Shown: positions 5,925 through 17,164 of the stretch, in pieces
How the letters are laid out: each line of letters starts with the position of its first letter
Position numbering within the stretch: the first letter of the stretch is position 1
Source: Klebsiella pneumoniae
GTDB taxonomy: Bacteria; Myxococcota_A; UBA796; SXON01
Length of the DNA stretch: 64,000 nucleotides
Assembly (NCBI GenBank): GCA_945862325.1
Contig: CAMAXZ010000018.1
Coordinates: 15,131 to 79,130 of the forward strand
Reading direction: 5' to 3'
Position numbers and translations under genes: made by a program
Notes under the pieces: generated by a model
The model's input: only the letters and a program-made list of their open reading frames with translations
Database searches by the model: none
What the model was told of the DNA's origin: nothing

Positions 5925-7523
5925 TCAAGTGATCTCTACTGGTGACTCTGTAAACACCCACAGCTCCACATGAATACCGCATCGGACGAGGTGTTGGTGC
6001 CATGCGGCCTGCTCGTCACGGACGGCGTCGGTAGGGCCCTTCACCTCGGCGAGGAGCGCGTCGGGAGGGAGGTTCGCGGGGAGCGCGCACGGGATGCGAC
6101 CCACCGGCCCCGACGCGATGAAAAGGTCGGGGAGACCTCGGGCTGCGGCCCAGCCCTCGTACGCCAGGCGACGGAGGATCGCCGACGCGATCGGCCCCGG
6201 CACGCGGCTCGCCCAGGCGCGCGCCGCCTCCTGCCACACGAGGCCCGCGAGCGGCTCCCCTTGCCACGTCGACACGTACCGATCGAGCCCGTCCTCGAGC
6301 TCGGCGAGGCGGCGCTCGACCTCCGGGCGACGGCGCGCGGCGAACCCGGGGGTCCCGACGTCGAGCGGGCCCGCGCGGCGCGGACCCGGGAGCATGCCGG
6401 GCACCGGGAGCCAGTACAGGTCGCGGAAGACCAGCGCGTAGAGCGATGTCCAAAGCGCGTTTTCGGCGTGCACCGCCGCGCGCCCCGCCCGCTCCGCGAG
6501 GGCGCCGGCCACGAGCTCGATCGTCCCCTCGCGCCCGGCGGCCCGCCACAACGGCCGCCCGTTCGCCGTGCCGATCCGCGGCGCCCGGAAGTGCCGCGAC
6601 GGGACGACGAGGGTCTCGGTCGGTGGCAGGCTCCTGCGCGCGGCGCGAGCCGCGGCGCGCCCCGCGCGCGCGAGCCCGACCGCCTCCGCTGGATCGGCGC
6701 TCCCGGCGCGCGCGATCTCGTAGGCTTCCCCCACGCGCCCCTCCCGGAGCAGCGCACGGACCCACTCCGCGCGGACGCGTGCCCCGCCCCGCACGAGGGC
6801 GCCCAGCGTGTCGGCGTCCGGCTCGTCGGCGAGCACGGCGTCGACCGCGCGCCTCCACGGGGACAGGCCGGCGTCGCGCGGCCCCGCCATCGCGACCGCC
6901 ACCGCTTCCCCCGGCTCCCAATCGCCCTCCCGAGCGCGCTCCCAGACCCGGCAGTCGCGGCGCGTGGCGAAGATGCCGGTCCCCCCCGTCGGCGCGTACG
7001 CGGCCCAACGCAGCGCGCCGACCCGCTCCGCGGCGAGAGACGACCGATCGAGCCCGCTGCGCTGAAAGGCGAACACCTCCGCGCGGCGGAGCAGGGCGAG
7101 GTGTCGCACGGCGACCACCGGCTCGTCGACCCAACGCGCTCCCCGCAGGCGCTGCTCGAGGTCGGCGCGGGAGCCGCCCACGGGCGCGCCGACACGGCGG
7201 CACGCCGCCTTCAGCGCCGCCACGTCGAAGGCCGGAAGGCACCACGCGTCGGGCACCTGGTCGTGGACCAGACCCGCCGCGGCCAGGACGGCCGCCGCCG
7301 TGGGCACGTCCAGCGCATACCGGAGCGACGCGAGGCGGAACACGCGGCCCTCGCGCAGGCTCAACCGGGCGTAGAGCTCCGCGGGTTCGTCCGCGAGGGC
7401 GAGGATCGTCGAGAGCACGACATGCTCGCCGGCGCTGAACAAGTGACCTTCCAGCTCGATCGCGCGGGCGACGACCTCGCGCAGGTCGGCGGCGGGGAAC
7501 GGGGACGCCGGGACAGTGCGCAC
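5925..7523 (-). CDS. FAN1-like structure-specific nuclease (SAP-like + helical + VRR-NUC domains)
   Basis: GTG at 7523 preceded by GAGGAGG. SAP-like segment LKAACRRVGAPVGGSRADLEQRL. C-terminal VRR-NUC/PD-(D/E)xK motif GLPDLFI...AEVKGPTDAVRDEQAAWHQHL. Confidence 0.7.
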   Translation of the reverse strand: MRTVPASPFPAADLREVVARAIELEGHLFSAGEHVVLSTILALADEPAELYARLSLREGRVFRLASLRYALDVPTAAAVLAAAGLVHDQVPDAWCLPAFDVAALKAACRRVGAPVGGSRADLEQRLRGARWVDEPVVAVRHLALLRRAEVFAFQRSGLDRSSLAAERVGALRWAAYAPTGGTGIFATRRDCRVWERAREGDWEPGEAVAVAMAGPRDAGLSPWRRAVDAVLADEPDADTLGALVRGGARVRAEWVRALLREGRVGEAYEIARAGSADPAEAVGLARAGRAAARAARRSLPPTETLVVPSRHFRAPRIGTANGRPLWRAAGREGTIELVAGALAERAGRAAVHAENALWTSLYALVFRDLYWLPVPGMLPGPRRAGPLDVGTPGFAARRRPEVERRLAELEDGLDRYVSTWQGEPLAGLVWQEAARAWASRVPGPIASAILRRLAYEGWAAARGLPDLFIASGPVGRIPCALPANLPPDALLAEVKGPTDAVRDEQAAWHQHLVRCGIHVELWVFTESPVEIT

Positions 7524-7607
7524 CCCCTCCTCTACCCCGCGGCGAGATGCTCCCCGGCGCGGGCCGTTCGCGGCGTAGCGCGCGACCGGCCTTGTTATGG
7601 ACCGGGC

Positions 7608-9038
7608 ATGAGTACCCGCCGCACCAAGATCGTCGCCACGCTCGGCCCCGCCACACGCGAGCCGGAACGCCTCGTCGCGTTGTTGAGCGCCGGCGTCGAC
7701 GTGGTCCGCATCAACTGCTCGCACGCCACGGCGGACGGCATCCGCGAGTCCGTGGCGCGGGTTCGTCGAGCGGCGACCGGGCTCAACCGCGCCGTCGGCA
7801 TCCTGCTCGATCTGCAAGGCCCGAAGATCCGCACCGGCAAGGTGCCGACGCCGCTCGTGCTGCAGCGGGGCGACGCGCTCACCGTCGTGATGGACGAAGA
7901 CTACGCGGCGCACGGCCACTTCGTCGGCACGACCTACACGGGCATGGCGGCCGACGTGCGCGTGGGCGACCTCGTGCTCTTCGCCGACGGCGCGCTGTCC
8001 GGCCACGTCGAGTCCGTGCACACCGAAAAAGCGCCGTCAGAAGTGGTGATCCGAATCGAGGACGGCGGCGAGCTCGGGTCCCACAAGGGCATCAACCTGC
8101 CCGGGGTCCCGGTCAGCGCCCCGTGCCTGACCGAGAAGGACATCGAGGACCTCGAGGTCGGCGTGAAGGCGGGCGTCGACTTCGTCGCGCTGTCGTTCGT
8201 GCGCGAAGCCCGCGACGTGCTCGAGCTGCGCCGCCACCTCCAGCGCCTGGACGTGCCCGATCTCCCCATCGTCGCGAAGATCGAAAAGCCGCAGGGCGTC
8301 GCGAACATCCAGGAGATCCTCCCCGTCGTCGAGGGGATCATGGTCGCGCGCGGCGATCTCGGCGTCGAGGTCAACCTGGAGCGCATCCCGGTCCTGCAGA
8401 AGGAGCTGATCGCCGCCGCGAACAAGGCCGGCGTCCTCGTGATCACCGCCACGCAGATGCTCGACAGCATGGAGCGAAACCCGCGGCCGACCCGCGCCGA
8501 GACCACCGACGTCGCCAACGCCATCCTCGACGGCACCGACGCGATCATGCTGTCTGGCGAGACGGCGACCGGCCGCTGGCCGATCCGGGCGGTCGAGACG
8601 ATGGATCGCATCGCCCGCGAGGTCGAGTCGAGCCGGTGGATGCGGCCGCCGATGGAGGACGTCTCCGTGCTGGCCGGCCCGCAGCTCACCGTGGTGCGCT
8701 CCGCCTGCTACGCCGTGCGCGAGATCCAACGGCCGCTGGTGGTCTTCACGTGGTCCGGGCACACCGCGCTGCTCGCCTCGAAGTCGCGGCCGCAGGGGCC
8801 GATCTTCGCCTTGACGCCAAACCAGACCACCTTCGACCGCCTCGCGCTCGCGTGGGGCGTCACGCCCGTTCGCGCCCCGAGCGTGGCGAGCACGGACGAG
8901 CTGATCCATCTCGGCGAGCAGATCCTGTTGCAGGAAGGCCACGTCCGGCGCGGCGAGGAGGTGGTCGTGTTGGCAGGAAACACCCCGATGAAGGGCGCGA
9001 CGAACACCATGAAGGTGTACACGGTCGGCCGTCTGTGA
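7608..9038 (+). CDS. pyk: Pyruvate kinase
   Basis: MSTRRTKIVATLGPAT...VRINCSH...DLQGPKIR...MVARGDLGVE...ATQMLDSM...TRAE..DVANA..DG.DA.MLSGETA.G. Confidence 0.95.
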   Translation: MSTRRTKIVATLGPATREPERLVALLSAGVDVVRINCSHATADGIRESVARVRRAATGLNRAVGILLDLQGPKIRTGKVPTPLVLQRGDALTVVMDEDYAAHGHFVGTTYTGMAADVRVGDLVLFADGALSGHVESVHTEKAPSEVVIRIEDGGELGSHKGINLPGVPVSAPCLTEKDIEDLEVGVKAGVDFVALSFVREARDVLELRRHLQRLDVPDLPIVAKIEKPQGVANIQEILPVVEGIMVARGDLGVEVNLERIPVLQKELIAAANKAGVLVITATQMLDSMERNPRPTRAETTDVANAILDGTDAIMLSGETATGRWPIRAVETMDRIAREVESSRWMRPPMEDVSVLAGPQLTVVRSACYAVREIQRPLVVFTWSGHTALLASKSRPQGPIFALTPNQTTFDRLALAWGVTPVRAPSVASTDELIHLGEQILLQEGHVRRGEEVVVLAGNTPMKGATNTMKVYTVGRL

Positions 9039-9087
9039 GTCGCCGACGCACCCTACACGCGCCCCGTCGCGCGGGGTAATCGTCCGC

Positions 9088-9573
9088 ATGCCCGTCGACC
9101 CCTCCGCCCTCGCGCGCGCGCCGCTCTTCGCCGACATGACCGCCGACGAACGCGCGGGGCTCGCGTTGTTCTTCACGCCGCGACGGGCGGACGTGGGCGA
9201 GGTCCTGCTGTGGGAGGGCCGGCCGCACGACAGCCTGTTCGTGGTCGAGTCGGGCAGCGTGGTGGTGTCGAAGCAGATCCGGGGCGAGACCGAGGCGGTC
9301 CTCGCGCACCTCAGCACCGGCGCCCACTTCGGAGAGGTCGACCTCATCGACAGCCAATCGGCGTCGGCGAGCGTCACCTGCGAGACGAGCTGTCGGCTCG
9401 CCGTGCTCGAGCAGGAGCAGCTCCGCGGGCTGCTCGCCAACGACGAGCACCTGTTCTCACGGTTCGCCTGGGCCCTCCTGCGCGACCTCGCCGGCAAGCT
9501 CCGCCGCACCAACCAGAAGCTTCAAGAGAGCATCGTGTGGGGCCTCGACGCGACCGCGTCCGACGTCCGCTGA
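9088..9573 (+). CDS. Stand-alone cyclic-nucleotide-binding-domain protein (atypical phosphate-binding cassette)
   Basis: 161 aa. PLFADMTADE...GEVLLWEGRPHDSLFVVESGSV...HFGEVDLID matches the CAP/CNB beta-roll. The conserved R-[ST]-A position reads S-A-S. Confidence 0.75.
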   Translation: MPVDPSALARAPLFADMTADERAGLALFFTPRRADVGEVLLWEGRPHDSLFVVESGSVVVSKQIRGETEAVLAHLSTGAHFGEVDLIDSQSASASVTCETSCRLAVLEQEQLRGLLANDEHLFSRFAWALLRDLAGKLRRTNQKLQESIVWGLDATASDVR

Positions 9574-9577
9574 CGCA

Positions 9578-10660
9578 TCACGTCGCCCGGGCCCACACGA
9601 GCCCTGCCGCCCCGACGACGAGAGCGAGCGCGGAGCACCCGGCGCCCGCGAGCCAGATGCGGTGCGGCCGCTCCAGCGTTCCGGCGCGGAGGGCCCGGAG
9701 CGAGGCCGCGGGCAGCTCCGGGACGCACAGGAGGTCCGCGAGGGCGTGCCCCCCGTCGCTCTGCGGAAAGAACGGCCACGCCGTGAGCGCGGCCTGGACG
9801 AAGAACACGTCGGCGAGCGTCGCGAGCGACCAGCCGAGCGACCCGCCGACCGCGCGCGACGTGATCGCCACGGCGCCCCCGCAGAGGACGGACGCGAACG
9901 GACCCGCCATCGCGACGACCGCGTGCTGGGCGCGGCTGGCCATGAACATGTCCGAGGTGTCGACGAACACCTTGCCGAGCCCGACGCCGACGCCGTTCAC
10001 CCGCCGCCCGTGCCAGGCGCAGGCGACGCCGTGGGCGAGCTCGTGCGGGATGGTCGCCATCGGCCACGCCCCGAGGAAGCCGAGCGCCCACACCCAGTAC
10101 GGAAACGACGCCGACGGTCGGGGGAGCATCAGGTGCGCGAGCAGTCCGCCGAACGCCACCACCCCCCACACCGGGAGCGAGCCCGCGGGGGCGAGCCGAC
10201 TCAGGAACCGGGCGGCCCGTTGGAACGCCGCGTCCACGTCGGTCCAACGGTGCTCCCAACCGACGACGCGCGCGACCGGGGTCTGAACCACCGAGGCGCT
10301 CGCATCGACGATCAAGCCCGCCTTCCGCGCCGCGTTGATGAACCGGGCCACCTTCGAGAGGTCGAGCGAGCCGGAGCGCACGAAGTAGGCCGTGGCGATC
10401 TCCTGCATGTTCCGGCGCCCGTCCATCATCAACCAGAGGGCGTGCTCGGTGTCGTCGACCTGCAGGTAGGTGTTGCGGCCCCGGACGTTCAGCACGAACC
10501 CGCCCTCTTCACGGGCGGCGATCTCGACGGTCACGTCCGCCGGCGGTGACGGACGAAACCGCAAGAGGGCCGCGCCAGGGTCGATGTGCTTGATCTCGAA
10601 GCCGGCTTCGGTGCCCGGGCGACGGACCATGAGCTCGAGCTTCTGGCGCGGAGGAGACAC
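9578..10660 (-). CDS. Membrane M50-family (site-2-protease-like) zinc metalloprotease with PqqD/RRE-like N-terminal domain
   Basis: HExxH inside a TM segment (IPHELAHGVA) and a second motif WPFFPQSDGGH (compare NxxPxxPLDGG). The N-terminal ALWLMMDGRRNMQEIATAYF...VARFINAARKAGLIVD resembles PqqD-type peptide-binding winged helices. Start is GTG 10660 or ATG 10630. Confidence 0.7.
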   Translation of the reverse strand: MSPPRQKLELMVRRPGTEAGFEIKHIDPGAALLRFRPSPPADVTVEIAAREEGGFVLNVRGRNTYLQVDDTEHALWLMMDGRRNMQEIATAYFVRSGSLDLSKVARFINAARKAGLIVDASASVVQTPVARVVGWEHRWTDVDAAFQRAARFLSRLAPAGSLPVWGVVAFGGLLAHLMLPRPSASFPYWVWALGFLGAWPMATIPHELAHGVACAWHGRRVNGVGVGLGKVFVDTSDMFMASRAQHAVVAMAGPFASVLCGGAVAITSRAVGGSLGWSLATLADVFFVQAALTAWPFFPQSDGGHALADLLCVPELPAASLRALRAGTLERPHRIWLAGAGCSALALVVGAAGLVWARAT

Positions 10661-10669
10661 GCGGGAAGG

Positions 10670-10900
10670 CTACGCCGCGGCGTCGCGCGCGAGGAAGGAC
10701 TCGTCGAACGCCTTGTTGAAATTGGAGACACGCTCGGGATTGGCGACCACGTCCTCGATCATCGACAGGCTGGCGGCGTCGAGCTCGATGCTCTCGGCGG
10801 CGAGGGTGCCGCGTACGTCCGCGACCAGGCGGGCGCGGAAGTCCGCGTCGATGAGGGCACGTCCGACGATGGCCTGGAGCTGGGCATTGGTCTGGGGCAT
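10670..10900 (-). CDS. NHLP-clan (Os1348/Franean1_4349-like) small protein, candidate precursor peptide
   Basis: 76 aa. ATG 10900 preceded by GGAGG. QLQAIVGRALIDADFRARLVADVRGTLAAESIELDAASL matches the helical leader-like pattern of nitrile-hydratase-leader-type peptides. It lies 9 nt upstream of the M50 gene. Confidence 0.6.
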   Translation of the reverse strand: MPQTNAQLQAIVGRALIDADFRARLVADVRGTLAAESIELDAASLSMIEDVVANPERVSNFNKAFDESFLARDAAA

Positions 10901-10939
10901 GAAACCTCCGCGTCCGGCGACGGCCGGAACCTCGGCAAT

Positions 10940-11857
10940 CTACGCCGTCGCGAGCGCGGCGGCGAGGCGCAACGCCACGAGCCGCGCGCGCGCCTCGCGC
11001 AGGTACGTCATGCGCCGCTCGGTCCACGCGTCGAAGCCGGCCAGGCCGACCTCGGCGGCGAGCGGGAGGCACGCGCGATGGTCGACCTCCGCCGCCGCCA
11101 GCGCGTCGTCGAGCCACGGGTCGGCCTGGAGGGCGGCGCGCACGCCCGCGTCGTGCAGCGGCGGATCGACCGAGGCGCGCACGCGCGCGAGGAGGAAGGT
11201 CTCGGCGCCGCTCCGAAGGTCCCGGTCGTGCCCGAACACGTCGTTCGCGCGCCCGTAGGCCACGCCGAGCCGATGCACGAGCGGTCGGACGGCCGCGGCG
11301 CGATCCCACCGCCCGGCGCGCGCGAGGGCCGCGAGCAGCGGGATCTCCGCGAGCGCGACCTTCTCGGCATGCGCGACGAAGTCGGCCTCCGCGTAGGCGC
11401 TCCGGGCGGCGATGTGCGCGCGTTCGGCCTCCGTCCACGCGGCGTACCGGAGCCACGCGTCGCGCGCGGCGGCGCCGAACTCTGGATGCGGAACCTGCGC
11501 GAACCCGGCGAAGGCGTCCCAACGGTAGGCGTCCGCGAGCAGCAGGAGCGACGCGTCCCCTCGCCCGCTCGGCTCGTCCACCAGATTGTCGACGATGCGC
11601 ACGGCGAAGTACGCGAGGGCCGTCGCTTCGAGGTCGCCGAGCAGCAGCTCCGCGTCGAGCCCCGCGTCGTCGGCGGCCATGAGCGGCAGCGCGAGCAGCG
11701 GCGGCGACGCCGGCAACGAGAAGTACGCCCGATCCGCGGCGCCGATGCCCGCGAAGTGGCGCTCCGCCGAGGCGCGCAGCGGCGCCGGATAGGCCGACAC
11801 GCGCGCTTCGAGGCGCGCCCACACCCGCGCGATCGGACCGGCCCACGGCGAGTACAT
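10940..11857 (-). CDS. Isoprenoid-synthase-fold (polyprenyl synthetase-like) protein with degenerate Asp-rich motifs
   Basis: 305 aa, all-helical. AYFAVRIVDNLVDEPSGRG aligns with the FARM region (first Asp-rich motif, xxDDxxD...RRG), and LGVAYGRANDVFGHDRD with the SARM region (second Asp-rich motif). The ATG overlaps the upstream stop (TGATG). Confidence 0.5.
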   Translation of the reverse strand: MYSPWAGPIARVWARLEARVSAYPAPLRASAERHFAGIGAADRAYFSLPASPPLLALPLMAADDAGLDAELLLGDLEATALAYFAVRIVDNLVDEPSGRGDASLLLLADAYRWDAFAGFAQVPHPEFGAAARDAWLRYAAWTEAERAHIAARSAYAEADFVAHAEKVALAEIPLLAALARAGRWDRAAAVRPLVHRLGVAYGRANDVFGHDRDLRSGAETFLLARVRASVDPPLHDAGVRAALQADPWLDDALAAAEVDHRACLPLAAEVGLAGFDAWTERRMTYLREARARLVALRLAAALATA

Positions 11858-13230
11858 CAGGCCGACGGGCGCTCGACGATCTCGGGGGCGGTGAGGGTCT
11901 CGGACACCCGCGTCTCCAGGCTGAGCCCCCACAGCACCGGCTCTCCCCGCTTGCCGCGGACCTTCACCGGTGGCAAGCGTCGGAATCCGGCGACGTGCCG
12001 GACGTGCTCGTGCACCGAGTCGCTCACGATCACGGTGCACGCGAGGTCCTTCGTGAGCTCTTGGAGCCGCGCCGCGAAGTTCACGGTGTCGCCGATGACG
12101 GTGAACTCCATCCGCTGCTCGGATCCGATGTTCCCCGCGACCACTTCGCCGTGCGCGATTCCGACGCCGATCCGGAGCTCGGCGGCGTCCGCGCCCAACA
12201 GGCCCTCGTTGAGCGATCGCACGCGGTCGACGATCTCGATGGCGGTGCGAACGGCGCGCTCCGGCGCGTCCGGCATCTCGCGCGGCACCCCGTAGACGGC
12301 CATCAACCCGTCCCCGAGAAACTTGTCGAGGGTGCCGCCGTTCCGGAACACGACCTCCACGAACTCCGTGAAGCACACATTGAGGAACTCGACGACCCGC
12401 TCCGGCGCAGAACGCTCAGCAAACGCCGTGAAGTTGCGGATGTCGAGGAACAGCACCGTCGCCGTGCGCCGCACGCCGCCGAGGCCCATCGCCGCCGGGT
12501 TCTGCAGCACGTAGTCGAGGACCTCCGCCGACATGTAGCGACGGAACCGGTCGGACTCGGACTGCAGGCGCTGCGCCCGTAGGGTCTCGCGCGCGCTCGC
12601 GACCAGGAGGCGGCGGTTGAGCTCGGCGAACCAGGCCATCACCGCGCCGAAGACCAACAAGAAGAATACGCCGGTGCCCTGCTCGGCGAGGTTCACCGCC
12701 TTCACGCCGTAGACCACCTCGTCGGTCGTCTCGGCGATCCCCGCGGACACGAGCCCGACCAGGAGGGCGAGGCGCGCGAACGCGGCGCAGCCCGCGGCCC
12801 AGAGCGACACGGACGAGCTGTACTGCAGCCCCGTGAGGCCGATCCAGATCAGGTACAGCATCGGGTAAATCGGAGCCAGCAACGCCTCGTATGCCCCGGA
12901 TGGCCCGGCCACGGTCGCGGCGGCGGCGCCCGTGACGACGGCCATGTCCACGGCGACGTTCACGTACCGAAGCGCCGCCGGGTGGCGCCCGGACGAGTAC
13001 ACCGCGAGCGCCGCCCCGGACCACACGGCGTAGCCCGCGCCGATCCCCAGGGTGGTCCACATGATCTCCGGTGGATTGCTCGACCACTGCGGCAGCAGCG
13101 CGAGGATGCCCGCGGCGCTGAGGCCGAGCCGGATCCGGGTGACCGTGACCTCGCCGCGCGCCACCTCGGGGGCGAGGATGCGCTCGACCTCGGGCGGCAG
13201 GGCCTCGGCGCGGAAGTACGAGGCGCTCAT
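11857..13230 (-). CDS. Membrane-bound class III adenylate/guanylate cyclase
   Basis: About 6 TM helices followed by a catalytic domain: TVLFLDIRNFTAFAE...GGTLDKFLGDGLMAVYG...GIAHGEVVAGNIGS..R.EFTVIGDTVNFAARL. Confidence 0.9.
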   Translation of the reverse strand: MSASYFRAEALPPEVERILAPEVARGEVTVTRIRLGLSAAGILALLPQWSSNPPEIMWTTLGIGAGYAVWSGAALAVYSSGRHPAALRYVNVAVDMAVVTGAAAATVAGPSGAYEALLAPIYPMLYLIWIGLTGLQYSSSVSLWAAGCAAFARLALLVGLVSAGIAETTDEVVYGVKAVNLAEQGTGVFFLLVFGAVMAWFAELNRRLLVASARETLRAQRLQSESDRFRRYMSAEVLDYVLQNPAAMGLGGVRRTATVLFLDIRNFTAFAERSAPERVVEFLNVCFTEFVEVVFRNGGTLDKFLGDGLMAVYGVPREMPDAPERAVRTAIEIVDRVRSLNEGLLGADAAELRIGVGIAHGEVVAGNIGSEQRMEFTVIGDTVNFAARLQELTKDLACTVIVSDSVHEHVRHVAGFRRLPPVKVRGKRGEPVLWGLSLETRVSETLTAPEIVERPSA

Positions 13231-14150
13231 GCGGCGCTCACCGCGCGCAGGGCGAGCAGCGCGTTGGCGGTGGCGTAGAGATCGCCGGTGTAGAACACCG
13301 CGTCGGGACAGTCTCCCAGCGGAAACCTTCCATCTTCGACCTGGAACTCCCACAGCCGCGCCGCGGCCGCGGCGACCGCCGGGTCGTCGGCGGGCTGGCC
13401 GGCCCGGAGGCGGGCCAACAAGGCCCACGCGGTCGGGAGCACGCTGCTCGGGCGGTGGGGTCCGAAGCCGTGCCCGCCGTCGGCGTGGGTGGTCGCGTCC
13501 AGCCACGCCCGGAGGGGCGCCGGTTCGACAACGGCGGCGCACACGTGCGCCGCGTAGAGCGGGGTGCCGTAGAAGGCGTCGTGGGCGTGCCACCCGCCGT
13601 CCGGAGCCCGCACCCGCGCGACGAACGCGCGCCCGGCGACGGCGAGGGGCTCGTCCGGCGCGAGCAGCGGCAGGACCCACCCGGTCACGGACGGTCCGGT
13701 CGCGTAGTGCGCGTGGCCACCGGGCGCCTCGAGGAGCGCCGCCGCCCACGTGCCGCCCGGAAGGGCATGGCGACGCGCGAGCGCCGCCAGCGCAGGCGCG
13801 CGCTCCGGATCGACGAGGGCCCAGGCGGCGGTCGTCTCCCAGCAGAGCGCGGGCCGCGCGCGCCAGTGCGGGAGCCCGCCGGCCCCGGCGAGCTCGCGGA
13901 GCGCCGCCGTCGAGGCCGCGGGCACCGGCGCGCCCCAGGCGCGAAGCGCGCGCAGCGTCGTGATCGTGTGCCACACGTCGGAGCCGGCGCCGAGCTTGTA
14001 CAGCTCGCGGCGCGGAGCTCCGGCAGGGTCCGCCAGCACCGCGGCGAGGTCGTCCACCGGGTCCCGCGCGAAACCGTCCGACGCGATCGTGCGGGCCAGC
14101 CACGCCACGGCGCGGCCTGCTGGAGGGTCGAGGTTGGTCGCCTGGGCCAT
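13227..14150 (-). CDS. Prenyltransferase/squalene-cyclase-repeat (alpha-alpha toroid) protein
   Basis: Repeated aromatic/Gly motifs (GGLPHW, PGGTWAA, PDGGWHAHDAFYG, ADGGHGFG, EDGRFP). Start is ATG 14150, 10 nt after the purK stop; ATG 14183 is an alternative. The stop overlaps the cyclase ATG (ATGA). Confidence 0.6.
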   Translation of the reverse strand: MAQATNLDPPAGRAVAWLARTIASDGFARDPVDDLAAVLADPAGAPRRELYKLGAGSDVWHTITTLRALRAWGAPVPAASTAALRELAGAGGLPHWRARPALCWETTAAWALVDPERAPALAALARRHALPGGTWAAALLEAPGGHAHYATGPSVTGWVLPLLAPDEPLAVAGRAFVARVRAPDGGWHAHDAFYGTPLYAAHVCAAVVEPAPLRAWLDATTHADGGHGFGPHRPSSVLPTAWALLARLRAGQPADDPAVAAAAARLWEFQVEDGRFPLGDCPDAVFYTGDLYATANALLALRAVSAA

Positions 14151-14160
14151 CCCGCCGATA

Positions 14161-15303
14161 CTACCACCCGAACCGAAGCGCATCCGCAGCGGCGCCTGCG
14201 GCGGCCTCCGCGAGGTCCGCCGACGTCGCGAGCGCGGTGACGTGACCCATCTTGCGGCGCGGGCGCACCGTGCGCTTCCCGTACAGGTGCACGTGCACGT
14301 CGCCGCCGTCCACCGCCTCCACGCCGGCGAGCGCGCCGGACGCGCGGACCCCGGCCGGACCGAGGAGGTTCACCATCGCCGCGGGGGCGCGGAGCGCGGG
14401 CGCCACCACCGGCAACCCGACGACCGCCCGCACGTGCTGCGCGAACTGCGAGATCGTGCACGCCTCGAGCGTGAGGTGCCCGCTGTTGTGCACGCGCGGC
14501 GCGAGCTCGTTCACGACCACTTCGTCGCCACGCACGAAGCACTCCACCGTCAACGTGCCGACGAGGTTCACCGCCTCGGCCAGCACCCTCGCGATCTGCA
14601 CCGCCCGGGCCTGCGCCGTGGCGGAGGCGCGCGCCGGACATCGGGTCACCCGGAGGATGCCGTCCCCGTGGTGGTTCTCGAACACCGGGAACACCTCGGC
14701 GCGACCGGACACGTCGCGCGCGACCACGACGGAGATCTCGAGGTCGAACGCGACCTCCGCCTCGAGCAACCACCGACCGCCCGGCGCGACCACGGCCTCG
14801 GCCGCGCGACGCCCCTCGGCGTCGGCCACGCGCCACTGCCCGCCGCCGTCGTAGCCCCCGCGCGCCGACTTGAGCCGGCAGACCCCGCCGAGGCGCGCGA
14901 GCCCGGCCGCGAGCGACGGCCCGTCCCGGACCTCCACGCCGGACGCGGTCGCGATCCCGAGGCGGTGGAGGAACGCGTGCTCGACGAGCCGGTCCTGGGT
15001 GATCTCGAGCAGCTCCGCGTCGGGACGACACGGACGACGGGCCTGCAGCGCGCGCACCGCGCCCGCGGGCACATTCTCGAACTCGTAGGTGAGCACGTCG
15101 CACAGACCCGCGAGCGCGTCGAGCGCGTCGGGGTCCTCGTACGGTGCACGAATCGTGCGATCCGCGACCGCCGCGGCAGGCGCGTCCTCCTCCGGCGCGC
15201 ACACGACCACGCCGTACCCGAGCTGGCGCGCCGCGACCGCGATCATCCGCCCGAGCTGGCCACCGCCGAGCACGCCGATCGTGCCGTCGCCCGGCCGGAT
15301 CAT
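14161..15303 (-). CDS. purK: N5-carboxyaminoimidazole ribonucleotide synthase
   Basis: [12 protein letters not shown]...TYEFENV...ATP-grasp...[12 protein letters not shown]...KMGH. The ATG overlaps the purE stop (ATGA). Confidence 0.92.
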
Positions 15304-15767
15304 GCGCCGACGGCGTCGCGGGCCTGCTCCGCCGCGTACTGTTCGAGCGCCGTCGCCAGCCCGGGATCCGCGAGGGCGAGGATGCGGATGGCGAACAAGG
15401 CCGCGTTCTCGGCGTTTCCGATCGCCATCGTCGCGACCGGGACGCCGCGCGGCATCTGGACGATCGACAACAACGAGTCGAGCCCGTTGAGCGCGCTGCT
15501 CTTCACCGGCACGCCGATGACCGGGAGGCGCGTCTTCGCAGCGACCATTCCCGGCAGGTGCGCCGCGCCGCCGGCGCCGGCGATGATCACCTTCAGACCG
15601 CGATCCGCCGCGCCCTCGGCGTACGCGAACATGCGATCCGGAGTGCGGTGCGCGCTCACGACGAGGGACTCCGCCGGAACGTTGAAGCGCGCGAGCAGCT
15701 CGAGCGCGCCGACCATCGTCGGCTCGTCCGAGCGGCTTCCCATGATGACACCGACGAGAGGGCTCAA
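15300..15767 (-). CDS. purE: N5-CAIR mutase
   Basis: [12 protein letters not shown]...SAHRTP...[29 protein letters not shown] start at 15767 preceded by GGAG; it overlaps the upstream stop (TTGA). Confidence 0.9.
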
Positions 15768-17164
15768 AATCGTACTCCGATGCCGCCGGTGAGCCGAAGG
15801 GCGTAGCCGGCGCGCGGGAGGGTGTCGGGGGCGAGGGTGACGTCGCCCGTGGTGGACTCGAGCTCGCCCGGGCTGACGAGCCAGGTGACGGGCACCTCGA
15901 GGAAGATCGAGAACGGGGCCGCGGCGTCGACCGCGAGCCCGAGGCCCCCGGTGGGGCCCCAGCTCGCCCCGCCGGGCGCGTCCGGGTACTCGACCTCGCC
16001 GAGGTCCGGCACCGAAAAACCATCGTTGATTCGGATCGTGAGCGCGGCGAGCACGTAGGGCTTCACGATGCCCGTGGCCACGGGGTAGAACCGCACCCGG
16101 GGCTCGAGGACGAACTGCGCGGCCGAGACGCTCTCTGGCGGGTCGAGCTCCTCGACGCGGAGGGTGTCGCAGGCCCCCGCCACGCACTCCCAGCCGGTGT
16201 CGAGGTGCTTCTTGCCGAGCTGGAACCCGGCGGCCACGGCGGTGTCGATCCACCAGTTGGGGGCGTACCCGACGGACAGGGTCCCCCCGGCCGCCTGGCC
16301 GGACACCTCGCCCTCCCACACCCGGGTGCCGATGGTGACCACCTGCCCGTCCTCGACGTCGTGATTGGTACGAACGCCGTAGCCGCGATCCACGTCGCCG
16401 AGGGTCCAGCCACCCGCGAGCTCGACGAACACCCGACCGCTCCGGACGCGCGACCGGCGCAGCCAGGCGTCACGCGCCTCCCCGCTCTCGACGTACCGCG
16501 CGTACGGACGCGCCGGGACACCCATGATCATGCGCTCCTCGGCGCGATCGACCGCGGGCAGGCGGTCGGAGGGGGTCCGATCGACGGGGATACGCTCCGG
16601 CGGCGGAGCCGGTGGCACGGGCTCGACGGGCGGCGGGGGAGCCGCGGGCGGCCCCTCGACGAGGATCTCCTCGTCCGGGAGGGTCATCGCCGGCGTGATC
16701 GGCGCGCGCGGCGGCAGCACCCGGAGCGCGTCGCGCGCCGCCCGCGCGAGGGTGTTCGCGAGCGCGCGCTCGCCCCCCAGCGCCACGCGCTCGCGGTACA
16801 CCTTGAAGGGCGCCGCGTCGTCGACGCCGTGAAATCTAGCTTCGACGTCGATCCCCTCCGAGGAGCGAACCACGGACGTGACGACCGCGAGGCGCGCGTC
16901 GGAGCGCTCCCAGAGGTTCGCCGGACAGGCCGGCCGCTCGAAGCAGTCGTCCGCCGCGCCGCCGGCCCACGCGCGGATCGTGTCGCCGTCGTCGACCGAC
17001 ACGCCGCCATCGAGGAGGGCCTGGATGAGAAAACTCTGAAAGATCGCCGCGACAGCGAGATCGTCGACGTCCCCGGAGACCGGGTCGGGCACGAGCACGT
17101 CGGCGGCGCGGGCGGAGCCGACCAGACAGGCCGCGGCGACCCCGAGGGCGAGCAGCCGCCGCAT
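15764..17164 (-). CDS. Secreted protein with Pro-rich linker and C-terminal beta-barrel-like domain (putative outer-membrane protein)
   Basis: Signal peptide [20 protein letters not shown]. The C-terminal half has alternating hydrophobic beta-strand patterns and ends ...LTGGIGVRF (terminal Phe). Confidence 0.6.

Follow-up and report, generated by a model that had tools for sequence, protein, structure and literature searches.

How does a membrane-bound adenylate cyclase come to be encoded between two enzyme folds of isoprenoid metabolism and beside a small ribosomal peptide? The question is raised by a group of genes in a 64,000-nucleotide stretch of contig CAMAXZ010000018.1 (hereafter the window; G+C content ~73%), where five tightly packed open reading frames (ORFs) on the minus strand (9578-14150) are faced by a gene for a cyclic-nucleotide-binding-fold (cNMP-fold) protein on the plus strand. 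In order of transcription the five encode an alpha/alpha toroid protein, a six-transmembrane (6-TM) class III cyclase, a protein with the fold of class I isoprenoid synthases (the synthase-like protein), a peptide of the NHLP clan and an intramembrane metalloprotease. Here we report that this cassette is a real, widely conserved and uncharacterised gene cluster. The reading that we favour, at about even odds, is that its six genes form one conserved cassette for an isoprenoid-modified ribosomal peptide, coupled to cyclic AMP (cAMP) signalling.

The conservation of the cassette was established by gathering loci through several routes and annotating them with hidden Markov models (HMMs) built from the window proteins; a metagenome scan used a 19-sequence subfamily alignment of synthase-like proteins. 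This produced 49 non-redundant loci (L numbers) with a synthase-family gene, mostly from metagenome-assembled genomes (MAGs) of Myxococcota. Dozens of independent contigs carry the gene set, with protein identities of 25-57%, a recurrence far beyond chance, and the genes thus co-occur in many genomes rather than in this one alone. An Os1348/Frankia-type peptide is encoded just downstream of the synthase-like gene in 28 of the 39 loci with enough downstream sequence, to which can be added three further loci, L020 and L024 with NHLP-like peptides and L005 with a frameshifted remnant. Among 23 well-flanked loci, the 6-TM cyclase is present in 16, the toroid or a larger protein that takes its place (X, 530-600 amino acids (aa), in L021, L026, L027 and L035) in 13, the protease in 11 and the cNMP-fold gene in 7. 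The invariant core is the synthase-like protein and the peptide, usually with the 6-TM cyclase, and in several loci the pair stands without any protease or cyclase. The six genes are the unit, as what lies outside them varies from locus to locus (purEK and pyk in the window, uvrC in L021, Lon and TPR genes elsewhere).

Three arrangements were distinguished. In arrangement (a), which is without the protease, the order is toroid-cyclase-synthase-peptide or cyclase-synthase-peptide-toroid (L001, L005, L016, L018). Arrangement (b) reads cyclase-synthase-peptide-protease (L008-L015) and is often preceded by a translationally coupled kinase-cyclase-AAA-TPR protein; in L009-L015 (e.g. L013 3971-7972) this is a ~1330-aa protein with Pkinase, Guanylate_cyc, AAA_16 and TPR domains, whose gene overlaps the start of the 6-TM cyclase by 4 nucleotides (nt) and whose best NCBIfam model, below its cut-off, is TIGR03903 (TOMM kinase/cyclase fusion). 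A Lon-like gene is divergent from the gene of this kinase-cyclase protein. In arrangement (c) the cNMP-fold gene is convergent with the protease gene, which in turn is divergent from synthase-peptide-X-cyclase (L021, L026, L027, L035); this subfamily is just 25-30% identical to the window proteins, and one of its loci, L028, has neither the protease nor the cNMP-fold gene. The cassette of the window combines arrangements (a) and (b).

Within the window, the close packing noted in the first-pass annotation, which was made by a model from the letters alone, was found at each junction (Table 1). The toroid stop overlaps the cyclase start in ATGA at 13227-13230, and the cyclase stop overlaps the synthase-like start in TGATG at 11855-11859. 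A 39-nt gap (10901-10939) follows the synthase-like stop, with GGAGG placed 5 nt upstream of the peptide ATG, and a 9-nt gap (10661-10669) separates the peptide from the GTG start of the protease. At the convergent ends, 4 nt lie between the stop of the plus-strand gene (9571-9573) and that of the protease (9578-9580, minus strand). The start of the toroid gene is uncertain, the candidates being ATG 14150, ATG 14183 and a position near 14108 (database call P0010). A scan of 8900-16500 detected no sigma-70-like promoter and only background levels of terminator-like matches, and so gave no sign of internal transcription units, with a method ill-suited to this organism.

Table 1. The six genes of the cassette, with positions counted from the first letter of the window
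Product	Position	Strand	Basis of assignment
Toroid protein, 307 aa from ATG 14150	13227..14150	-	AlphaFold + Foldseek fold, QW-repeat profile
Class III adenylate cyclase, membrane-bound, 457 aa	11857..13230	-	PF00211
Class I isoprenoid-synthase-fold protein, 305 aa, candidate peptide prenyltransferase	10940..11857	-	AlphaFold + Foldseek
Os1348-family NHLP-clan peptide, 76 aa	10670..10900	-	NF038399, PF14407
Intramembrane HExxH metalloprotease (M50-like), 360 aa, GTG start	9578..10660	-	Motifs, NF041824, PqqD-like domain
Stand-alone cyclic-nucleotide-binding-fold protein, 161 aa	9088..9573	+	PF00027

Two isoprenoid-enzyme folds had been suspected in this operon, and AlphaFold models compared by Foldseek confirm both, though neither protein has a significant Pfam match; no HMM assigned either of them to an unrelated family. 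The model of the synthase-like protein (predicted local distance difference test (pLDDT) 88) matched octa-, hexa- and geranylgeranyl-diphosphate synthases and 'prenyltransferase Ord1' with TM-scores of ~0.7, and the heterodimeric hexaprenyl-diphosphate synthase 3aqb was among its best matches by both fold and sequence. The first Asp-rich motif is D90-N-L-V-D94-E95, the family form of which, D(N/D)xxDE, is invariant. The second, N205-D-V-F-G-H-D-R-D213, is of the NSE/DTE type and not DDxxD, its NDVFG being aligned to DDILD of 3aqb_B. Across 64 diverse members of the family the equivalents of R87, D90, D94, D206 and D213 do not vary, and N205 is likewise invariant. With its metal-binding motifs preserved in this way, the protein is not degenerate, as it had at first been called. 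Of the two DDxxD motifs that mark trans-isoprenyl diphosphate synthases, the first is present and the second is not. Judged by these motifs, the protein seems to be a class I enzyme for ionisation or transfer and not for chain elongation; the function of a chain-elongating prenyl-diphosphate synthase is ruled out by the missing second DDxxD. The family is broad, with 467 representatives at E<1e-3 in a profile search, and close homologues are rare (9 clusters among 5.8 billion in a word-indexed search).

The partner of this enzyme is a member of the NHLP clan, as had been proposed: the window peptide scores 41.1 bits against NF038399 (Os1348 family, NHLP clan; cut-off 40) and matches PF14407 (Frankia_peptide) at E 3e-9. 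Orthologous peptides score 49.6 (L011), 67.9 (L026) and 46.7 (L058) bits with NF038399, and that of L001 falls below the cut-off at 28.1, while PalX-like N-termini reach only 13-16 bits against our peptide HMM. The window peptide ends in ...FLARDAAA, and the sole recurrent C-terminal feature of the family is a basic residue four to six positions from the end (RDAAA, RGEYVC, RKAAS, GDRAAY, KVQSV, HVEMG). In L005 (10974-11183; also in L006 and L007) the peptide gene looks disrupted, leaving the frame-shifted remnant 'VKLQEIIGRA...'; the remaining cassette genes of L005 are intact, including a catalytically dead cyclase, and the remnant could be a pseudogene or an assembly error.

The chemistry of the pair is best approached through its variants. 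An X-like domain is fused to the synthase-like domain in P0104, a 671-aa protein at the distant locus L024 (6001-9963; the same in L025). Behind it come a 95-aa NHLP-like peptide with the C-terminus ...ERPPW and then a HisKA_7TM-SpoIIE receptor phosphatase, which occupies the place of the cyclase. The C-terminal Trp of the L024 peptide matches PalX. A geranylgeranyl-reductase-like domain is fused to the synthase-like domain in P0058 and P0072, and a protein of the same reductase family (TIGR02032, E 9e-37) accompanies the synthase and a Frankia_peptide in L023. Beside the pair in L048 are a WelO5-like oxygenase, an S8 protease and a cyclase-AAA-TPR protein. In L058 (3952-10426), X is divergent from a 702-aa synthase-like fusion, with a 1364-aa kinase-cyclase-AAA-TPR protein upstream; the Os1348-family peptide here ends in Cys (GGPGGGKGSGTC) and is followed by an HFCD flavoprotein (CoaC/CypD-like, Cys-decarboxylase-like) and a WelO5-like oxygenase. 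All recurrent enzymatic partners thus have isoprenoid-acting folds or are tailoring enzymes or proteases of the type found with peptides that are ribosomally synthesised and post-translationally modified (RiPPs). Taken together, the synthase-toroid fusion, the geranylgeranyl-reductase-like partners and the RiPP-type enzymes and proteases beside the peptide family point to isoprenoid chemistry centred on the small peptide.

The second isoprenoid-type fold is that of the toroid, a single-domain alpha/alpha toroid of the class II terpene-cyclase or prenyltransferase-repeat type (pLDDT 83). Its best Foldseek matches were drimenyl-diphosphate synthase, the myxobacterial 'squalene-hopene cyclases' 8pak/8paj, MstE and squalene-hopene cyclase (SHC), at E 2e-8 to 1e-4 and TM-scores of 0.62-0.70, and farnesyltransferase beta was a poorer match than these class II terpene cyclases. 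A profile search detected the QW repeats of SHC and oxidosqualene cyclases at E 1e-9. Invariant residues include H61, H95, C103, E105, H190, D191 and D290. The C-terminus of X aligns to the toroid family (hhalign E 4e-5), with a weak match to SQHop_cyclase_C.

For the protease, a PqqD-like recognition domain joined to an M50 protease had been proposed. The first half of this stood: an N-terminal PqqD/RRE-like domain is encoded at ~10211-10660, and PqqD (PF05402) is weakly matched in the N-terminal domains of 11 of 11 orthologous proteases (best E 1.7e-5). The catalytic part has HELAH at residue 206, PFFPQSDGG at ~301 and ~4-5 transmembrane segments, that is, the HExxH and DG motifs of an intramembrane protease; its score against M50 itself (PF02163) stays below the cut-off (18.8 vs 27.2). 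The better match is NF041824, the daptide HExxH intramembrane metalloprotease (E 5e-17, 62 bits vs a cut-off of 300), with a weak match to YydH/LiaK (NF058609); the L026 orthologue gave E 1e-24 and 9e-12, respectively, for these two models. A sequence search against PDB found no match for the protease. Directly 3' of the protease in L012 (7303-8886), L013 (12207-13832) and L015 (12200-13828) lies a conserved 527-542-aa protein ('...PRGGLTGHPDVDVWNHAWG...') that has no Pfam match and is absent from the window.

The cyclase conforms to its annotation as a 6-TM class III enzyme (PF00211, E 6e-24). An N-terminal domain of about six transmembrane segments is encoded at 12526-13230, where hydropathy finds 5-6 segments in the first 205 residues, and the catalytic domain at 11860-12525. 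The closest solved structures to the latter are Synechocystis Cya2 (2w01) and an engineered adenylate-cyclase variant (6fht). The catalytic set is complete, comprising both metal-binding Asp residues, the Lys/Thr specificity pair, Asn and Arg (motifs FLDIRNFT, KFLGDG, FTVIGDTVN and AAR), and the alignment to 2w01 and 6fht places Lys/Thr where the guanylate-specific Cya2 has Glu/Gly. We take this pair to be that of class IIIb adenylate cyclases, and by sequence the protein bears the marks of a homodimeric, catalytically competent class IIIb-type adenylate cyclase. No Pfam model matches the TM domain; R34, D95, G112 and E115 within it are invariant across orthologues of only 21-35% identity. A word-indexed search with the TM-domain profile returned 4 proteins only and missed known orthologues, so exclusivity of the domain to the cassette cannot be read from it. 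Its follow-up added L057, a further cyclase-synthase-X locus, and L056, a TM-only homologue without the cassette. A shared origin of this domain with the 7TM region of the L024 SpoIIE receptor was also considered, and hhalign found no similarity.

The state of the cyclase active site varies with the rest of the cassette. Every locus with a protease, the window and 11 others, retains an intact site. Among the loci without one, L001, L005, L016 and L018 have lost the metal-binding Asp residues (Q/E and S/G), and L028 has one of them changed from D to N. This co-variation, which perhaps represents two or three independent events and not twelve, ties cyclase catalysis functionally to the protease and cNMP-fold module. 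It also shows that making cAMP is not the only thing for which the membrane protein is kept. The cNMP-fold protein consists of a single domain matching PF00027 at E 4e-17 (62.5 bits vs a cut-off of 27.5). The convergence of its gene with the 3' end of the protease gene recurs in L008, L021, L027 and L035, and in L026 and L011 it lies nearby.

On the reading of the cassette as a peptide-modifying pathway, the 76-aa peptide would be the substrate or a scaffold. With its metal sites, D(N/D)xxDE and NDxxGxxxD, the class I-fold enzyme would bind a prenyl diphosphate and transfer the prenyl group to the peptide, probably near the C-terminus, as with ComQ and PalQ. The toroid or X might then act on the prenyl chain, for example by cyclising it, and the protease would recognise the leader through its PqqD/RRE-like domain and cleave the lipidated peptide at the membrane. 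The adenylate cyclase would form the signalling arm, in the position held by the receptor kinases ComP and PalP, with the cNMP-fold protein as a possible downstream partner. Prenyl transfer to the peptide, the acceptor atom, cleavage and export are steps that we infer; likewise, the cyclase may serve as product sensor or as pathway regulator, the direction of signalling is a presumption, and binding of cAMP by the cNMP-fold protein is a prediction.

A number of observations weigh against this reading. The synthase-like protein has no Pfam or NCBIfam match at E<0.1, the curated ComQ and polyprenyl models included. The DxDD general-acid motif of class II cyclases is absent from the toroid in 6 of 6 aligned orthologues, the nearest equivalent being an invariant L-C103-x-E105-T. 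The window peptide contains no Trp, Tyr or Cys and therefore no obvious acceptor residue, and no single nucleophilic residue is conserved in its family. The peptides are conserved from end to end, unlike typical RiPP precursors with their variable cores, and the crystal structure of Os1348 itself is that of a folded homodimer (PMC7726476). There are whole clades with no toroid and whole clades with no protease, and the cyclase is kept in some clades though catalytically dead. Finally, the cNMP-fold protein had been called a cNMP-binding protein; the fold and the place beside the operon agree with the name, but Ala replaces the phosphate-binding Arg (R82 of Escherichia coli CRP, to which the sequences were aligned) in 9 of 9 cassette-linked homologues, including that of the window. 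A simple relay by cAMP is for this reason not assured.

A more specific form of the peptide pathway would be a cAMP-based counterpart of ComQXP cell-cell signalling, with a ribosomal peptide bearing a terpenoid group, possibly cyclised, made by the class I and class II enzymes, released by the RRE-protease and sensed in a conserved polar pocket of the 6-TM domain. We regard this extension as unlikely.

Some of the same observations would fit a free terpenoid pathway, in which a prenyl diphosphate is turned into a small terpenoid lipid by the class I enzyme together with the toroid or X. The lipid would be sensed or regulated by the membrane cyclase, and the small protein would be a non-catalytic subunit or chaperone of the synthase. 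Heteromeric hexa- and heptaprenyl-diphosphate synthases have small subunits, and the heterodimeric 3aqb was among the best matches of the synthase-like protein. A class I and class II pair with geranylgeranyl-reductase-like partners is, moreover, a classic terpenoid enzyme set, the NDxxGxxxD second motif resembles the NSE/DTE motif of terpene cyclases, and a peptide that is conserved throughout, offers no obvious acceptor and belongs to the family of a folded dimer would suit a non-catalytic subunit. However, this pathway does not readily accommodate a protease that has an RRE-like domain, resembles RiPP maturation proteases and directly follows the peptide gene, nor the variants that place an S8 protease, an HFCD flavoprotein and Cys- or Trp-ending peptides beside the pair; in addition, PalQ shows that the superfamily can prenylate NHLP-type peptides (PMC10853753). 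We consider a free terpenoid product doubtful.

Alternatively, the cassette could serve signalling alone, with the cyclase, the intramembrane protease and the small protein forming a switch based on regulated intramembrane proteolysis and cAMP, and the isoprenoid folds acting as ligand-binding or scaffold subunits. The swapping of the receptor-type protein between variants (6-TM cyclase, 7TM-SpoIIE phosphatase, kinase-cyclase-AAA-TPR protein), the pseudo-cyclases of some clades, the conservation of the cNMP-fold protein and the classical role of M50 proteases in signalling are all consistent with such a switch. The invariant metal-binding motifs of the synthase-like family, on the other hand, argue for catalysis, the protease has an RRE-like domain and matches RiPP maturation models rather than those of RseP/SpoIVFB type, and the synthase-peptide core is found in several loci that have neither protease nor cyclase. 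A purely signalling role is in our view improbable. A Pycsar-like anti-phage system, in which a cyclic nucleotide from the cyclase activates a cNMP-binding effector, is very improbable indeed and is disfavoured here. The PADLOC matches (PycC models to the cyclase domain, E 5e-28; PycTIR models, weakly, to the cNMP-fold protein) reflect only the generic homology of cyclase and cNMP-binding domains, and the 161-aa protein is missing both an effector domain, whether TIR or TM, and the phosphate-binding Arg. The Lys/Thr pair of the cyclase stands where guanylate-specific Cya2 has Glu/Gly, and the genes conserved alongside encode an isoprenoid-fold enzyme and a peptide of the NHLP clan and are not defence genes.

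Directly upstream of the cassette in the window and on the same strand (minus) lie purK (PF02222, PurK_C) and purE (PF00731) at 14161-16319; 10 nt separate the purK stop (14161) from the toroid ATG 14150, and the alternative ATG 14183 would overlap purK. The cassette may be read through from purEK in this genome, and its upstream neighbours differ in other genomes. On the other side, the pyruvate kinase gene (7593-9035, plus strand) ends 50 nt before the cNMP-fold gene and is divergent from a FAN1-like gene with FAN1_HTH, SAP and VRR-NUC domains (5928-7514, minus strand). Elsewhere, the MAGs of L008 and L021 are labelled Klebsiella pneumoniae and Enterobacterales and have G+C contents of 64% and 72%; they carry the same cassette as MAGs of Myxococcota and 'Deltaproteobacteria', and their taxonomic labels are probably wrong. 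At two distant synthase-family loci, L039 (5334-6914) and L041, peptide and cyclase were not detected, and the synthase-family gene adjoins a DUF6851 / vanadium-chloroperoxidase-like PAP2 protein and a conserved ~480-aa protein; these may represent a different use of the same enzyme family.

If the peptide-modification reading is true, prenylation of the ComQ/PalQ type would extend beyond Bacillota to Myxococcota and other phyla, and the addition of a class II cyclase-like enzyme would imply peptide-terpenoid hybrids that are not known among RiPPs. For the membrane anchor of a 6-TM class III adenylate cyclase, the cassette would also supply a candidate ligand whose genes are linked to that of the cyclase; what such anchors sense is, to our knowledge, a long-standing open question. 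The idea is directly testable because the TM domain has invariant charged residues and because a 7TM-phosphatase receptor is swapped in at the same place in a sister variant. Should the pheromone reading be true, a bacterial 6-TM adenylate cyclase would for the first time be paired with its cognate natural ligand, and the peptide would belong to a new class of terpenoid RiPP. Looking further, genome mining would gain a practical handle in this uncharacterised class I isoprenoid-fold family, whose catalytic residues are invariant and whose peptide partner is predictable.

The combination of genes had at first not been recognised as a described system. This held in that literature searches (Os1348, PF14407, NHLP with adenylate cyclase or prenyl) found no paper describing the cassette; it is not, however, without precedent, since ComQXP and PalQXP share its logic. 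The Os1348-Os1351 cluster of Pseudomonas sp. Os17 has been linked to antibiotic activity (PMC7726476). Its peptide belongs to the same NCBIfam family (NF038399) as that of the window, and a ~386-aa 'peptidase' beside it is comparable to the window protease by description (PMC7726476); the Os17 cluster has instead a GNAT protein and a SagB-type dehydrogenase, with no isoprenoid-fold enzyme, cyclase or cNMP-fold protein. The daptide and YydH/LiaK proteases, the best model matches of the window protease and its orthologues, are like them polytopic membrane proteins with HExxH and DG motifs, but the scores are 62-88 bits against an equivalog cut-off of 300, and the daptide tailoring genes are absent from the window cassette.

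The toroid is likened to MstE and 8pak/8paj by its alpha/alpha toroid of ~300-350 aa with QW-type repeats. The prenyl chain that MstE cyclises is one that a non-terpenoid scaffold already carries, and the same role is proposed for the window toroid; the toroid differs from class II terpene cyclases in having no DxDD and from farnesyltransferase beta in having no demonstrated Zn site. For the signalling arm, large kinases have been described beside NHLP-Burk precursors by Haft et al. 2010 (PMC2887384). NCBIfam names this kinase family (TIGR03903) TOMM system kinase/cyclase fusion; it provides a precedent for a cyclase-homology signalling protein beside NHLP-clan precursors, as also seen in L009-L015 and L058, whereas the window carries the 6-TM cyclase only.

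By analogy, no known systems come closer than PalP/PalX/PalQ of Paenibacillus alvei and ComQXPA of Bacillus. PalP, PalX and PalQ are a histidine kinase, an NHLP-type peptide and a prenyltransferase of the isoprene-synthase superfamily that modifies the C-terminal Trp of the peptide (PMC10853753). In ECOD, a single homologous group unites Frankia_peptide, ComX, Nif11 and NHase_alpha (PMC12353581). In these systems and in the window alike, the gene of a class I-fold enzyme has as neighbours those of a small peptide of NHLP/ComX type and of a polytopic membrane protein for signalling, and the enzyme has the first Asp-rich motif without a canonical second DDxxD, as in ComQ, where the first is present and the second absent (PMC10853753). 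The differences are as clear. Where they have a histidine kinase, the window cassette has a 6-TM class III adenylate cyclase as membrane partner, and it contains neither a histidine kinase-response regulator pair nor a response regulator. Its synthase-like protein has no detectable sequence match to the curated ComQ or polyprenyl models, its peptide has no Trp (only the distant L024 peptide ends in one), and its host is Myxococcota-like and not of the Bacillota. To the shared core the window adds the toroid (X elsewhere), the RRE-HExxH intramembrane protease and the cNMP-fold protein. In summary, the cassette can be likened in its logic to ComQXP and PalQXP, with the toroid, the RRE-protease, the cyclase and the cNMP-fold protein as its new partners.

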